64,000 bases of DNA from contig CAVTUQ010000037.1 of NCBI GenBank assembly GCA_963737905.1, positions 96,001 to 160,000 on the forward strand, written 5' to 3'. The DNA is from an uncultured delta proteobacterium. Lineage in GTDB: Bacteria > Desulfobacterota > Binatia > UBA9968. This document shows, piece by piece, positions 47,764-50,654 of this stretch (the stretch's first letter is position 1; each line of letters begins with the position of its first letter). The notes beneath the pieces were generated by a model, which saw only the letters and a list, made by a program, of their open reading frames with translations, did not search any database and had not been told where the DNA came from. A program made the translations under genes and the position numbers.

Positions 47764-49107
47764 ATGCCAAACCGAATCTTGATCGTTGACGATGAGCCGC
47801 TGAATCTCGATCTCTTGGACCAGGAACTGGCGGACCTGGGCCATGTGACCGAACGGGCCATCGACGGATCCGAAGCCCTCGCAAAACTCGATGCTGCCAA
47901 TCCAGATCTCGTTTTACTGGATTATCAGATGCCGGGGATGAACGGCATCGAGGTTCTGAAGGAGATCCGCAAACGGGACCACAATTTGCCCGTAGTCATC
48001 ATCACCGCCTACGGTACCATTGAACGAGCCGTCGAAGCCGTAAAGGCGGGCGCCGACGACTTCATTACGAAACCCTTCGATCCGGAGCATCTCGCATTAG
48101 TGGTCAAGAAGGCGTTGGAACGAGCGCAGCTCCAATCCGAAGTGGAATTCTTCGCCCAAGAGCTTAGCGGACGCTATCGCCTCGTCGCAGGAAAGAATGC
48201 CTTGATGGTTCAGACGGTAGAGGAAGCAAAGAAGGCCGCAGGCAGCAAGTCCACGGTTTTGCTCCTGGGCGAGAGCGGCACCGGCAAGGAAATCTTCGCC
48301 CGGGCGATTCACGACTGGAGTGACCGGAGATTGAAGCCCTTCATCGCCATCAACTGTGTCGGGCTTGCCAAAGACCTTTTGGAGAGCGAGCTATTCGGTC
48401 ATGAGAAGGGTGCTTTCACCGGAGCTCATCAGCTCAAAAAGGGGAAAATGGAGCTGGCTGATGGCGGCACGGTGTTCCTGGACGAGGTCGGCGATATCGC
48501 GGCGGAGCTCCAGACCAAGCTTTTGCGTTTCCTTCAGGAGCGCGAGTTCGAACGCGTGGGCGGAACCGGGCCTATCACCGTGGACGTGAGAATCATTGCC
48601 GCGACGAATCGCGATCTTGAACAGGCGCTCAAGAACGGAACCTTTCGTGAAGATCTCTACCATCGCCTGAATGTTATCGCGATTACGCTGCCGCCTTTAC
48701 GGGAGAGAAAGGAGGATATCCCGATCCTGGCGAACTATTTTTTGCAACGGTTCTCGTCAGAGGCGAAAAAGAATTTCTCGGAAATCGCCGAGAGCACGCA
48801 GGAAAAACTCTTGGCTTACCGCTGGCCGGGGAACGTGCGCGAGCTTGCCAACGTTATCGAACGGGCAGTCGTTTTAGGGGACGGCCCGATATTGACCGTC
48901 CACCATCTACCGGTAAGGGTCATTGGCGGGCAACCGAGCAACAAGACTGAAGAATTGTCCTACCACGACGCCATCAATACCTACCGCCGCGAGCTGATCG
49001 TTACAGCGCTAGCCACTGCGCAGGGCAATCGTGCTGCGGCGGCCAAAGCGCTTGGCCTGCATAGAACTCATCTGCTGAAAATCATGAGAGCCCTTGCGAT
49101 CAACTAG
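47764..49107 (+). CDS. NtrC-family sigma54-dependent response regulator
   Basis: REC, GESGTGKE, ESELFGHEKGAFTGA, WPGNVREL, Fis-type HTH. Confidence 0.95.
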   Translation: MPNRILIVDDEPLNLDLLDQELADLGHVTERAIDGSEALAKLDAANPDLVLLDYQMPGMNGIEVLKEIRKRDHNLPVVIITAYGTIERAVEAVKAGADDFITKPFDPEHLALVVKKALERAQLQSEVEFFAQELSGRYRLVAGKNALMVQTVEEAKKAAGSKSTVLLLGESGTGKEIFARAIHDWSDRRLKPFIAINCVGLAKDLLESELFGHEKGAFTGAHQLKKGKMELADGGTVFLDEVGDIAAELQTKLLRFLQEREFERVGGTGPITVDVRIIAATNRDLEQALKNGTFREDLYHRLNVIAITLPPLRERKEDIPILANYFLQRFSSEAKKNFSEIAESTQEKLLAYRWPGNVRELANVIERAVVLGDGPILTVHHLPVRVIGGQPSNKTEELSYHDAINTYRRELIVTALATAQGNRAAAAKALGLHRTHLLKIMRALAIN

Positions 49108-49472
49108 TGAGGGCGTCAAGCGGGCGATGACTGTGGAGCATCGTAAATAACCCGCGCTCCCGATGAATTTGAACATTTTATGGCAGCTCACCCGGGCCGG
49201 CCCTCTGAATGAAGATCAGAGTGATTGAAACTCTACGGACGGGCATTTATATGATCCAGCGCCCCTATCGGATCCTAATTAAACACACAGAAGCAAACTG
49301 CAGTCCTACATTTCTTGCGTCCCGTGCTGGCGTGTTTGTCTGGTCGTTAATAAAACACGCTCTTATTATTTCTTTTCTCTAAATTCGTCTCTGACACCGT
49401 TGTTGTACTAAAATCCCGTTTAGGTGAAAATAAAAAAAATCAAAGAAAATTTTGTAAAATGATATTTTTTTC

Positions 49473-49502
49473 TTGACATACAATTTGTTGTGCCGTTATA
49501 AT
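49473..49502 (+). promoter_or_regulatory. Near-consensus sigma70 promoter
   Basis: TTGACA-18 bp-TATAAT preceded by an AT-rich UP-like tract. Confidence 0.8.
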
Positions 49503-49616
49503 CGCCGCACCTACAAAATGTGGGAGGGTTTTTTGAGATTATCTTTCTTAGCCTGAGCCAACACTTACTTCCTCTTACTAAAAGCCCACCGCATGGAATT
49601 TTAAAAGGAGGTACTT

Positions 49617-49667
49617 ATGGCAGTAAAGAAGAAAGCCAAGAAGAAAGCCAAAAAGAAAAAAAAGTAA
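49617..49667 (+). CDS. 16-aa Lys-rich peptide MAVKKKAKKKAKKKKK
   Basis: AAGGAGGT RBS just upstream of the ATG; own promoter and terminator; below the ORF-track cutoff. Confidence 0.7.
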   Translation: MAVKKKAKKKAKKKKK

Positions 49668-49751
49668 CTAAGTTTTGAGATGTGGGGTTGCGGCGGTGAA
49701 CTGAAACCCTCCTTTATCTCAGGCGCTCGGATAGCCGTTCTGGCTATCTAG

Positions 49752-49797
49752 AAAACAGAGCCCTCCGATCAGCCAAGTCGGGGGGCTCTGTTTTTTT
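49752..49797 (+). terminator. Strong intrinsic terminator
   Basis: AAAACAGAGCCCTCCGA...TCGGGGGGCTCTG followed by T7. Confidence 0.9.
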
Positions 49798-49838
49798 GGA
49801 TCTTTGCTATGTTTGGTCCATCCGGCTAAATAGCGGTA

Positions 49839-50654
49839 ATGAAACACCTCATCGCCGGATTGTCGGCGGAGCGGTACCCGCCCGAACAAGCGAAATTCAG
49901 GTCGCCATTGCTTCTGGTTCATGGTGTGTGGAGCGGAGCTTGGTGCTGGCAAAGCTGGGCCACCCATTTTTGCAACTTAGGATGGGAGTGCATCGCCATC
50001 GATCTGCGGCGGCGCTCTCCACAAAATCCAATGGGAAGCCTCCATAACCTCCGTTTCAACGACTGCATCCAAGATCTCGCAGCGTTTATTCATTCTTTTT
50101 CCATACCGCCGGTTTTGCTGGCAATGGATCTAGGTGCGCTAATGGCGCTCAAGGTTTGCGAGCAAAGCAAAAATTCCGCCCTTATTCTGGTGTCGCCCCC
50201 GTCACCGGGAAATCTGGCGGCCAGATCGCGGCCACAGCGCCTCCTGTGGCTCAAATATGGATTGCTGATTTTCTTGCAGCGGCCATTCCGAATCGACGAG
50301 AGGGACTTTCGCACTTATTTTTTAGCACCACTCCCTGAAAATCTCCAAAGTCGACTTAGCCGTCAGATAGTACCGGAACCCAGCGCGCTGGCTCGCGAGT
50401 TTCTCGTGCCGCGCGTCAACCTCGAGTCTGAGCCATTGAATTGCCCGATCCTGGTTTTGGGAGGCAGCGAAGATCGTATTACACCGCCAGCGACCAGCCG
50501 CCGAATAGCTGAGTGGCTTGGCGGAGAATTCAGAGAATATCCCGGCCAGGGCCATTGGCTGATCGAGATGAACAGCGAACCTATCGTACGGGATGTTCAT
50601 CGCTGGATCATCCAAAAGCTGGGTGAGAAAATTCTCCTTGCCGACTTTTCGTGA
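49839..50654 (+). CDS. Alpha/beta hydrolase fold protein
   Basis: LLVHGVWSGAWCW, AIDLR, VLGGSEDRI, YPGQGHW; nucleophile elbow reads AMDLG. Confidence 0.82.
   Translation: MKHLIAGLSAERYPPEQAKFRSPLLLVHGVWSGAWCWQSWATHFCNLGWECIAIDLRRRSPQNPMGSLHNLRFNDCIQDLAAFIHSFSIPPVLLAMDLGALMALKVCEQSKNSALILVSPPSPGNLAARSRPQRLLWLKYGLLIFLQRPFRIDERDFRTYFLAPLPENLQSRLSRQIVPEPSALAREFLVPRVNLESEPLNCPILVLGGSEDRITPPATSRRIAEWLGGEFREYPGQGHWLIEMNSEPIVRDVHRWIIQKLGEKILLADFS

Follow-up and report, generated by a model that had tools for sequence, protein, structure and literature searches.

A predicted poly-lysine micro-gene with end-to-end pairing of its mRNA, conserved in the Binatia

What can a peptide of 16 residues, most of them lysine, be for, and is it likely to be made at all? 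The question is raised by a short unit of the window (the whole 64,000-nt stretch of DNA analysed here, from an uncultured member of the Binatia), in which a promoter, a leader of ~108 nt, a perfect Shine-Dalgarno (SD) sequence, a 16-codon open reading frame (ORF), a trailer of ~130 nt, a hairpin and a terminator follow one another (table 1; both untranslated lengths assume a transcription start at 49509). An earlier note on this DNA had read it as a stand-alone transcription unit for a polycationic peptide. Every element that it quoted was located at its coordinates, correct to the base, and this central reading was borne out by the conservation of the unit and by selection on the ORF. Judged from sequence comparison, the unit is a genuine micro-gene, independently transcribed and predicted to be translated.

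Table 1. Features of the micro-gene, given as positions of the window.
Feature	Position	Strand	Remark
A/T-rich block upstream of the −35 element, UP-element-like	49433..49472	+	ends in a T-run before TTGACA
Sigma-70-type promoter TTGACA-18-TATAAT	49473..49502	+	12/12 consensus matches; −35 TTGACA 49473-49478, 18-nt spacer, −10 TATAAT 49497-49502
Predicted primary transcript, ~289 nt	49509..49797	+	start set 7 nt past the −10 element
5'-terminal hairpin CCUAC-AAAAU-GUGGG	49510..49524	+	RNAalifold; weakly supported
Box A GGGAGGGUUU	49522..49531	+	includes 5' GGAGGGTTT, 49523-49531
Box B (A)GCCUGAG, 5' strand of the closing helix	49550..49557	+	GCCTGAG, 49551-49557
CU-rich segment TACTTCCTCTTA	49566..49577	+	upstream anti-SD of the earlier note
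Shine-Dalgarno AAGGAGG	49605..49611	+	within TAAAAGGAGGTA, 49602-49613
ORF for MAVKKKAKKKAKKKKK, 16 aa + TAA	49617..49667	+	ATG 49617, TAA 49665-49667
G/U-rich box GAUGUGGGGUUGCGGCGGUGA in the 3' UTR	49679..49699	+	conserved in families f1 and f2
Box A' AAACCCUCCU, CCUCC anti-SD-like core	49704..49713	+	overlaps CCTCCTTT, 49708-49715
Box B' CUCAGGCG, 3' strand of the closing helix	49718..49725	+	CTCAGGC, 49718-49724
Hairpin GGAUAGCC-GUUCU-GGCUAUCU	49729..49749	+	
Intrinsic terminator, GC-rich stem + U7	49757..49797	+	ends at 49797

In alignments of relatives, the promoter elements TTGACATACAA and TATAAT are near-invariant across genera, and within the A/T-rich block that precedes them, which may act as an UP element, the pattern ...AAAATG.TAT-TTTTTTC is kept in all 17 full-length rows of a 19-row alignment. 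The extended promoter word has a single exact occurrence in the genome, at the unit's own locus, and its one-mismatch matches number 6 genome-wide versus 8 for a reversed-pattern control; a shared regulon defined by this word was dropped, given that the exact word is confined to the unit's locus. No similar promoter was found upstream of the 16S gene. The predicted transcript folds at −98.9 kcal/mol (z = −4.1), better than 200 out of 200 shuffles. All 10 contig pieces from the RNA libraries of four studies, whose sources include soil and rhizosphere RNA, fall within 49509-49771, none lying in the flanks and neither adjoining gene being covered, and one contig starts exactly at 49509, the predicted +1, with the caveat for all contig evidence that RNA libraries may contain DNA, and that contigs cannot define strand, ends or abundance. 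RNA runs in which only a small share of words matched (X19, X20 and those at 0.00) were left out of this evidence.

The covariation of stems that the earlier note had asked for was found at the 3' end. Across 58 homologs, the hairpin shows 97.2% pairing, a mean probability of 0.80 and changes on both sides in 7 out of 8 pairs, and the terminator 92.7% pairing with changes on both sides in 8 out of 12 pairs; the 5'-terminal hairpin pairs in just 74% of the alignment cells. Alignment among relatives stops at the terminator end. As to the surroundings, here the unit is flanked by a sigma-54 response regulator and, after the terminator, an alpha/beta hydrolase, and in other genomes the micro-gene follows gcvH or eno, all of these names resting on motifs recognised by eye in the raw ORF listing. 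A functional hint was sought from the neighbours of the micro-gene in several genomes, and none emerged.

The ORF encodes MAVKKKAKKKAKKKKK, with 11 lysines (six AAG and five AAA codons) out of 16 residues, the remaining ones being of the types M, A and V, and a net charge of approximately +11. In the whole 6.7-Mb genome (54.5% GC) there are three ORFs of 10-45 codons with at least 50% lysine, and only that for MAVKKKAKKKAKKKKK is preceded by an SD, which is complementary to the 3' end of the host genome's own 16S rRNA (...CACCUCCUUUCU). The AAGGAGG is invariant in 58/58 homologs. The succession of SD, ATG, lysine run and stop codon, whose loss among relatives would have spoken against a gene, is kept, the ORF being intact in all 64 distinct copies, which yield 21 peptide variants of 12-19 aa. 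The seven ORF lengths among these copies (39 to 60 nt) are multiples of three by construction of the copy set, so that indels were taken from unforced DNA alignments, where they measure 3, 6 and 12 nt. The first stop in any frame was discarded as a frame test, GCU-AAG codons making an out-of-frame TAA (34/64 copies). Variation is concentrated at third codon positions, with entropies of 0.229, 0.277 and 1.003 for the first, second and third position, respectively, and variable sites in 6, 10 and 16 of the 16 codons, and non-lysine positions are conserved (the M-A-A start and the spacing of alanines). The codon pattern of the aligned copies thus shows purifying selection on the peptide sequence, and not on the RNA alone.

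These data also bear on whether the lysine codons, rather than the peptide, could be the functional element. The run might act as a sensor of lysyl-tRNA supply, or through stalling on poly-lysine, so as to set the fold or fate of the transcript or read-through into the next gene, the peptide itself being irrelevant. Eleven lysine codons out of 16 and a terminator ~130 nt downstream superficially resemble the attenuators that contain leader peptides. However, the sequence past the terminator cannot be aligned between genomes and the downstream genes differ; the ensemble shows a strong, constitutive terminator (mean pair probability 0.77 over the 58 homologs), no conserved antiterminator having been found; and non-lysine positions, which in longer homologs include the KAKKKAPAKKK motif, are conserved. 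We regard a sensing function as very improbable, and the unit is not an attenuator.

The unit is present in 28 out of 41 related genomes (22/24 in family f1 and 5/5 in family f2), with 67-87% identity at the DNA level and flanks that cannot be aligned, a combination that implies more than chance. Among named species genomes, 58 out of 66 pattern matches contain the whole unit, and the carriers are nearly all labelled as Binatia or 'Deltaproteobacteria' MAGs. In the phylum-wide BLAST search 22 out of 401 genomes gave a match, with the whole unit in only 2 and just 27-55 nt of the lysine-codon tract in the remaining 20. Homologs of 21-31 aa, also placed behind AGGAGG, occur in families f7, f114, f116, f117 and f121; MAVKKKAKKKAKKKKK is about half as long and lacks their KAKKKAPAKKK core, and its mRNA differs from those of the long forms by an extra GGGAGGG/CCCUCC box pair and the G/U-rich box of the 3' UTR. 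A similar GUGG-rich box was seen in the 5' UTR of family f7. Common to the long forms and to the MAVKKKAKKKAKKKKK unit is a GCCUG/CAGGC closing helix. Between families the UTRs diverge past BLAST detection, and what persists is the SD with the ORF and the B/B' pair. By these shared elements, the comparison shows a single predicted gene family spread through the class Binatia, with products of 12-19 aa in f1/f2, the family of the window and its sister family, and of 21-31 aa elsewhere. Outside the Binatia, further classes of the phylum also contain stand-alone Lys/Ala micro-ORFs of 17-23 aa, of which one has a perfect 12-nt UTR-UTR complement of its own.

A very small, basic and presumably highly expressed product (as judged from the 12/12 promoter and the perfect SD) could be a lineage-specific ribosomal protein with a fixed site, namely, an analogue of bS22/eL41 or bL37 seated in an rRNA pocket, with the structured mRNA serving for autoregulation. 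Precedents are bL37 and bS22, tiny basic ribosomal proteins that are sometimes unannotated, as described in PMC10081302. Several results do not fit. The Pfam scan, which covered 30-aa homologs (the 16-aa peptide is below the 20-residue minimum), returned no family at E up to 10, the bS22 domain DUF1713 (PF08213) and the Hc2 family PF07382 included, and the same was found with NCBIfam for the long forms P0001 and P0002. A length of 12-31 aa, frequent indels and the failure to find the micro-gene in five near-complete genomes of families f3, f6 and f8 are not what is expected of a protein held in a fixed pocket, and at the loci examined the micro-gene never adjoins ribosomal genes. Mimicry of 16S rRNA by the 3' box was considered and dropped, its likeness to the 16S 3' end being confined to the CCUCCUUU core, with a different order of elements. 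On balance, a ribosomal protein appears unlikely.

Other searches were similarly silent. A phmmer search of 1.84 billion representatives gave nothing at E up to 0.001, and a collection of 15 billion proteins contains no exact copy of the 30-aa relatives, in agreement with the earlier expectation that gene callers would miss the gene. In the ESM Atlas the sole family-bearing neighbour was a cluster containing Hc2, with a score of 0.82, below the lead level of 0.9. In Rfam 15 no match reached the gathering score in the window. The literature search found no description of the micro-gene; ORFs of this kind may be listed in the supplements to papers on small ORFs or on the Binatota.

The second distinctive aspect of the unit is the pairing between the two ends of its mRNA. 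The earlier note had proposed that GCCTGAG (49551) pairs with CTCAGGC (49718), and this B-B' helix turned out to be conserved class-wide, with compensatory changes. It encloses the SD and the ORF in a loop of ~160 nt. Among the 58 homologs it is 99.1% paired, with a mean pair probability of 0.36 and Box B' invariant in 58/58. Its 5-bp core is paired in 87-88 out of 88 copies at each position in five families, the set including the f7 copies L135 and L139, which had failed the core-anchored search and were added afterwards. A flanking pair is C-G in 76 copies and U-A in all four f114 copies, and in one copy a U-A pair of the core is changed to C-G. In 22 out of 24 f7 copies the helix extends to 14-21 bp. 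Similarly, the pairing proposed between the 5' GGAGGGTTT and the downstream segment was recovered as A-A', which can form in 91.6% of cells with a mean probability of 0.37 (58 homologs) and with a single compensatory change, from U-A to C-G. Within f1/f2 the long-range boxes are almost invariant, 6 out of 8 pairs never varying, so that the long-range covariation rests on few between-family changes, and kin copies are not independent. The duplex tests used core-anchored windows, which replaced global 5'UTR × 3'UTR duplex energies; the comparison of the latter with shuffles was dropped, since long GC-rich UTRs give spurious duplexes (z from about −1.3 to +1.4). By taking into account this conservation, the predicted end-to-end pairing of the mRNA is a genuine feature of the gene. 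The A-A' and B-B' helices cross each other, and in the folding model they could be either alternatives or the two parts of a pseudoknot.

The masking of the SD was found to be less definite than first proposed. In the structure ensemble the SD is 65-80% paired, with mixed partners. The upstream CU-rich segment TACTTCCTCTTA does pair with it in the single-sequence minimum free energy fold; however, both its sequence and its partner vary among homologs (~0.07-0.1 probability per pair), and it is not conserved as a single SD partner. The downstream CCUCC box proposed as a further partner is complementary to the SD in 93.1% of cells, so that this pairing is indeed possible, but there is no compensatory change and it is thermodynamically minor, with a mean pair probability of 0.015 as compared with 0.37 for the pairing of CCUCC with the 5' GGGAGGG (58 homologs).

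UTR boxes that are more conserved than an ordinary mRNA requires could reflect an RNA function of their own. Taken to its limit, this would make the RNA the main effector, a dual-function small RNA that reaches other RNAs or proteins through its G/U-rich box, GGGAGGG, CCCUCC and GUUCU-loop hairpin, with the ORF being secondary or serving to load ribosomes. The UTR boxes are in fact conserved as strongly as the ORF, the 3' part is built like a small RNA, with a G/U-rich box that is single-stranded, followed by a hairpin and a terminator, and the best sub-threshold Rfam match is a weak one to OhsC (30 bits versus a cut-off of 50) that involves the hairpin and terminator only. On the other hand, the three-base periodicity and the conserved alanine positions reveal selection on the peptide, across families it is the SD with the ORF and B/B' that are kept as the UTRs diverge, and no Rfam family reaches threshold. 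Such a primary role of the RNA is judged to be improbable, more so than a ribosomal location of the peptide.

A long helix between the UTRs around a very short ORF also brings to mind the type I toxin-antitoxin modules of the hok type, in which a translationally locked mRNA would be activated by processing to give a toxic product. The analogy, already drawn in the earlier note, stands for the fold of the mRNA, its closing 5'-3' helix being comparable to the hok tac/fbi stem (PMC9841398), and fails for the peptide, which is devoid of hydrophobic residues: neither MAVKKKAKKKAKKKKK nor any of the 21 variants contains a hydrophobic segment. Furthermore, the gene is chromosomal and single-copy in the host genome, vertically conserved across the class and driven by a consensus promoter. 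A search for a conserved antisense promoter over the unit found none, the only minus-strand site being a promoter-like one with 9/12 matches that lies over variable codons, and no partner RNA reached threshold in Rfam. A toxin-antitoxin function is the least credible of the alternatives, and we conclude that no type I toxin is encoded here.

Thus, we favour, with roughly even confidence, a micropeptide that binds nucleic acids by virtue of its charge and is made from an end-paired mRNA. The peptide would act through bulk charge as a gene-encoded polycation, coating or neutralising nucleic acids, its presumed targets being nucleoid DNA and/or RNA, ribosomes included, and it would behave like a free tail of the histone-H1 or protamine type that fills no single fixed pocket. 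The bulk-charge reading is suggested by the free drift of length and Lys/Ala spacing (12-31 aa, with frequent in-frame indels), and by the apparent ability of some families to do without the gene. The most likely role of the pairing between the UTRs is to make this very small mRNA more stable and to adjust the access of ribosomes; in the window's family, the second 5' box GGGAGGG would occupy the 3' CCUCC box that is otherwise able to mask the SD. A role as a polyamine substitute is unsupported, as spermidine-synthase domains are found both in carriers (G000, G009 and G556) and in non-carriers (G026 and G150), being absent only in G499 among the genomes compared. More tentatively, poly-lysine micro-genes may represent a widespread, unannotated class of polycations, with the Binatia mRNAs locked by the UTR helix as a hok/icaR-like timer of stability or translation for an abundant housekeeping peptide that neutralises or compacts nucleic acids; we consider this broader proposal somewhat doubtful.

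Gene callers skip ORFs of such length, homology searches fail on low-complexity sequences (0 hits) and tryptic proteomics would probably cut a poly-lysine peptide to pieces. The micro-gene nonetheless pairs a near-ideal promoter and SD with conservation throughout a class of soil bacteria that occurs worldwide. Should peptides of this kind prove to be abundant polycations, models of the charge balance of nucleoid and ribosome would be lacking a component. Its mRNA adds a deeply conserved bacterial case of pairing between 5' and 3' UTRs, for which, to our knowledge, few examples are available so far (e.g. hok and icaR).

The comparison with known systems involves both the mRNA and the peptide. 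In the hok mRNA a long 5'-3' UTR interaction, the tac/fbi stem, closes the molecule and is its hallmark (PMC9841398). As in hok, a distant UTR-UTR helix surrounds a very short ORF and the alternative pairings involve the SD; unlike in hok, the encoded peptide lacks hydrophobic character, the search for an antisense RNA found none and the gene does not belong to a mobile element. In Staphylococcus aureus icaR the 3'-UTR UCCCCUG is complementary to the mRNA's own SD and RNase III acts on the resulting duplex (PMC3868564). The two mRNAs thus share a C-rich 3'-UTR motif (CCCUCC here) with complementarity to their respective SD. The micro-gene differs from icaR in that the favoured partner predicted for its 3' motif is the 5' GGGAGGG, a putative decoy (0.37 versus 0.015), and in that the conserved B-B' closing helix leaves the SD out. 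With regard to the peptide, bL37 (24 aa, pI 12.0) and bS22 (33 aa, pI 12.75), along with eL41, are likewise very small, very basic and often unannotated, and they bind nucleic acids by charge (PMC10081302); the micro-peptide would probably do the same. It differs from the three proteins by the lack of a family match, a variable length, a patchy distribution and a context free of ribosomal genes. Its low-complexity Lys/Ala(/Pro) composition is similar to that of the H1-like tail of chlamydial Hc2 (PF07382). Other Lys/Ala-rich tails of the H1 type are those of AlgP and of mycobacterial HupB. In all of these, such sequences form the tails or repeats of far larger chains, in contrast to the micro-gene, whose 12-31 aa are the whole product of a unit with its own promoter and terminator.

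Re-reading of the sequence confirmed, at the positions claimed in the earlier note, all the elements assigned to the unit, from the promoter to the terminator that follows the Lys-rich ORF (table). In the whole 6.7-Mb genome, ORFs of 10-45 codons with at least 50% Lys number only three, the window's ORF being the only one preceded by an SD; the extended promoter word occurs once in the genome, and the fold of the predicted RNA of approximately 290 nt beats 200 of 200 shuffles (z = -4.1). On these grounds, the unit is no chance pattern.

Elements of the unit (window positions)
Feature	Position	Strand	Detail
Sigma-70 promoter	49473-49502	+	12/12 consensus positions, spacer 18 nt
SD AAGGAGG	49605-49611	+	exactly complementary to the 16S 3' end of the same genome
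ORF	ATG 49617 to TAA 49665-49667	+	translation MAVKKKAKKKAKKKKK
Boxes GGAGGGTTT, GCCTGAG, CCTCCTTT, CTCAGGC		+	each found in the unit
Hairpin	49729-49749	+	confirmed in sequence
Terminator	ends 49797	+	confirmed in sequence

The comparison with relatives proposed in the earlier note, carried out as a DNA search with the 361-nt stretch, found the unit kept in 28 of 41 related genomes at 67-87% identity, including 22/24 of the window's family (f1) and 5/5 of its sister family (f2), with 0/11 in a third family (f3). Aligned conservation runs from the A/T-rich block 5' of the -35 element to the terminator T-run; the flanks do not align between relatives and the neighbouring genes are unrelated. 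The alignments mark the unit as conserved and self-contained. A scan for the 3' box in one genome per species led to 66 loci, namely 58 whole units, one cut by a contig end and seven, from other phyla, matching the pattern only (chance expectation had been approximately 11 hits). Nearly all the records are titled as 'Candidatus Binatia' or 'Deltaproteobacteria bacterium' MAGs. Complete units with a Binatia-type peptide in bins with Chloroflexota, Verrucomicrobiia and Candidatus Eisenbacteria labels (L030, L067 and L086) are probably mis-binned contigs rather than cases of transfer, and two copies with identical cores on different contigs of one MAG (L054 and L057) may have arisen by duplication or be artefacts of assembly or binning. 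The 58-row alignment includes two rows from genomes flagged as unpublished (G012 and G006), on which no claim hangs.

When 86 copies were collapsed to 64 distinct cores, the SD and the ORF behind it were found intact in 64/64, as the proposal of a translated peptide had anticipated, with 21 peptide variants of 12-19 residues that invariably start with M-A, and with TAA (55) or TAG (9) as the stop codon. Indels in unforced DNA alignments measure 3, 6 and 12 nt, the entropy by codon position is 0.229, 0.277 and 1.003 bits (first, second and third), and all 16 third positions vary along with 6 first and 10 second ones. Translation is strongly supported by this three-base rhythm, which no RNA-level constraint known to us produces, and the pattern indicates that selection acts on the ORF as coding sequence. 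A dual function centred on the RNA, also envisaged in the earlier note, is considered quite improbable.

Parts of the stretch are present in 20 public runs, six of them metatranscriptomes of soil or rhizosphere, drawn from five studies. In four metatranscriptomes, each from another study, compared with 49100-50200, 10 of 10 contig pieces fell inside 49509-49771, one beginning exactly at the predicted +1 (49509), and neither flanking gene was covered by contigs. This presence gives supportive but weak backing to expression, as neither strand, transcript ends nor level can be read from the contigs, and DNA may be present in RNA libraries.

A coding-pattern search of 401 genomes of the class, in which the reversed control pattern gave zero matches, retrieved 38/63 of f1 and, outside the order, 6/25 of f7 and 3/8 of f114, two further families whose loci encode 29-30-aa peptides (e.g. 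MAAKKKAKKAKKKSKAKKKAPAKKKGSKKK). Their layout is like that of the window's unit: an A/T-rich block, promoter, G-rich 5' box, (C)GCCUG(A)G and strong SD precede the ORF, followed by CUCAGGCG, hairpin and terminator. The f7 unit, used as query, matched 104 of the 401 genomes, many over the SD and ORF only (by family, f7 23/25, f4 11/13, f5 3/3, f115 14/20, f116 13/19, f117 11/18, f121 4/5, f6 2/55 and f8 0/94), some matches falling in larger Lys-rich proteins such as L154 of f3. Thirty inspected loci encode 21-31-aa peptides behind AGGAGG, with a KAKKKAPAKKK core recurrent in most. The generic SD-ATG-KKK pattern was found in none of five near-complete f3, f6 and f8 genomes, so that the distribution is patchy among the genomes searched. 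Judged from these sequences, the family extends through the class, with the window's peptide as the short form. Rfam gave no family match; for the 30-aa forms, no Pfam or NCBIfam model, that of the bS22 domain included, was matched at E up to 10, the exact sequences are absent from a 15-billion-protein collection, phmmer gave zero matches among 1.84 billion representatives, and the closest clusters in the Atlas consist of unnamed proteins of 22-39 aa. Literature searches on lysine-rich or polylysine small bacterial proteins gave no description of it.

The long-form gene (flanks of L113-L142, neighbours named by eye from end motifs) has as its 5' neighbour a gcvH-like gene in f7 and an enolase gene in f114, f116 and f117; a cysH-like gene converges on it from the other side. 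The f1 gene, unlike it, is now in unrelated contexts. In f7, a box GCTAGGCACGTA, absent from the window's unit and with no partner seen, is kept in the 3' UTR approximately 30-45 nt past the stop in 6/6 loci compared (L103-L108). Contigs of f4, f119 and f122 with several overlapping or tandem Lys-tract matches (G558:C107, G608:C110, G631:C697 and G470:C33) may carry longer Lys/Ala-repeat proteins or tandem micro-genes. Other classes of the phylum have stand-alone 17-23-aa Lys/Ala ORFs (e.g. MAVKKKAAAKKKATKKK and MPTKKKAAKKKAKKPAKKKK) at L143 (G426), L144 (G283), L146 (G133) and L147 (G096); that of L146 is preceded by TTGACATAC...TATAAT and a strong SD, and its 5' UTR GGTCGCCCGGGG is fully complementary to 3' UTR CCCCGGGCGACC (perfect 12 nt). 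Several copies per genome of spermidine-synthase-like domains (G000:C37:27453-27806 and others) were seen in these Binatia genomes, within very long open frames (about 500-1150 aa).

At the RNA level, both-side changes in 7/8 pairs of the GUUCU-loop hairpin and 8/12 of the terminator in 58 full-length copies, 97% and 93% of the cells being paired, give these two stems good support. The long-range helices are pairable yet near-invariant inside f1/f2: the closing helix B-B' (5' GCCUGAG with 3' CUCAGGC) shows no double change at 99.1% pairing, and A-A' (5' GGGAGGG with the 3' CCUCC box) one at 91.6%. Pairing of the SD with the downstream CCUCC box, also claimed previously, stands as complementarity (93.1%, no double change), but its mean base-pair probability in the 58 homologs is only 0.015, with 0.37 for A-A' and 0.36 for B-B'. 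The predicted fold leaves the Lys codons open; the SD is 65-80% paired, its local partners being mixed. A-A' crosses B-B'; the two may be alternatives, as a nested folding model makes them, or form a pseudoknot. Decisive support for B-B', the GCCTGAG/CTCAGGC pair of the earlier note, comes from 88 copies of five families, in which the 5-bp core GCCUG/CAGGC is paired in 87-88 at every position, though the remaining UTRs have diverged past BLAST detection. Just outside the core, 76 copies have C-G, all 4 f114 copies U-A, 4 copies U-G and 4 a mismatch; within it, a single f7 copy replaces U-A by C-G. The helix grows to 13-21 bp in f7, f114 and f116 (-18 to -33 kcal/mol).

A hok-type toxin is rejected, the peptide having no hydrophobic residue run and no antisense partner having been found; the type I toxin likeness drawn earlier is confined to the mRNA fold, and a toxin-like unit is scarcely credible. 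An attenuator is ruled out because no conserved gene lies downstream; that the Lys-codon run is a sensor is very improbable.

Taken together, the results demonstrate or strongly support that this micro-gene is conserved, stands alone and occurs in RNA libraries, that its peptide product is under selection, and that a conserved 5'-3' helix closes the mRNA. The peptide would act on nucleic acids by bulk charge, a reading given an even chance because the peptide varies freely in length (12-31 aa) and in Lys/Ala spacing and some families can do without it. These same properties stand against a ribosomal protein with a fixed site, such as bS22 and bL37 (PMC10081302), which is judged unlikely, and would better fit an H1- or protamine-like counter-ion; the remaining probability goes to something else. 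In f1/f2, the 5' GGGAGGG box would hold the 3' CCUCC box off the SD, which would thus stay unmasked. The closing helix, in turn, may stabilise the small mRNA and tune initiation, by analogy with hok tac/fbi (PMC9841398) and icaR (PMC3868564).
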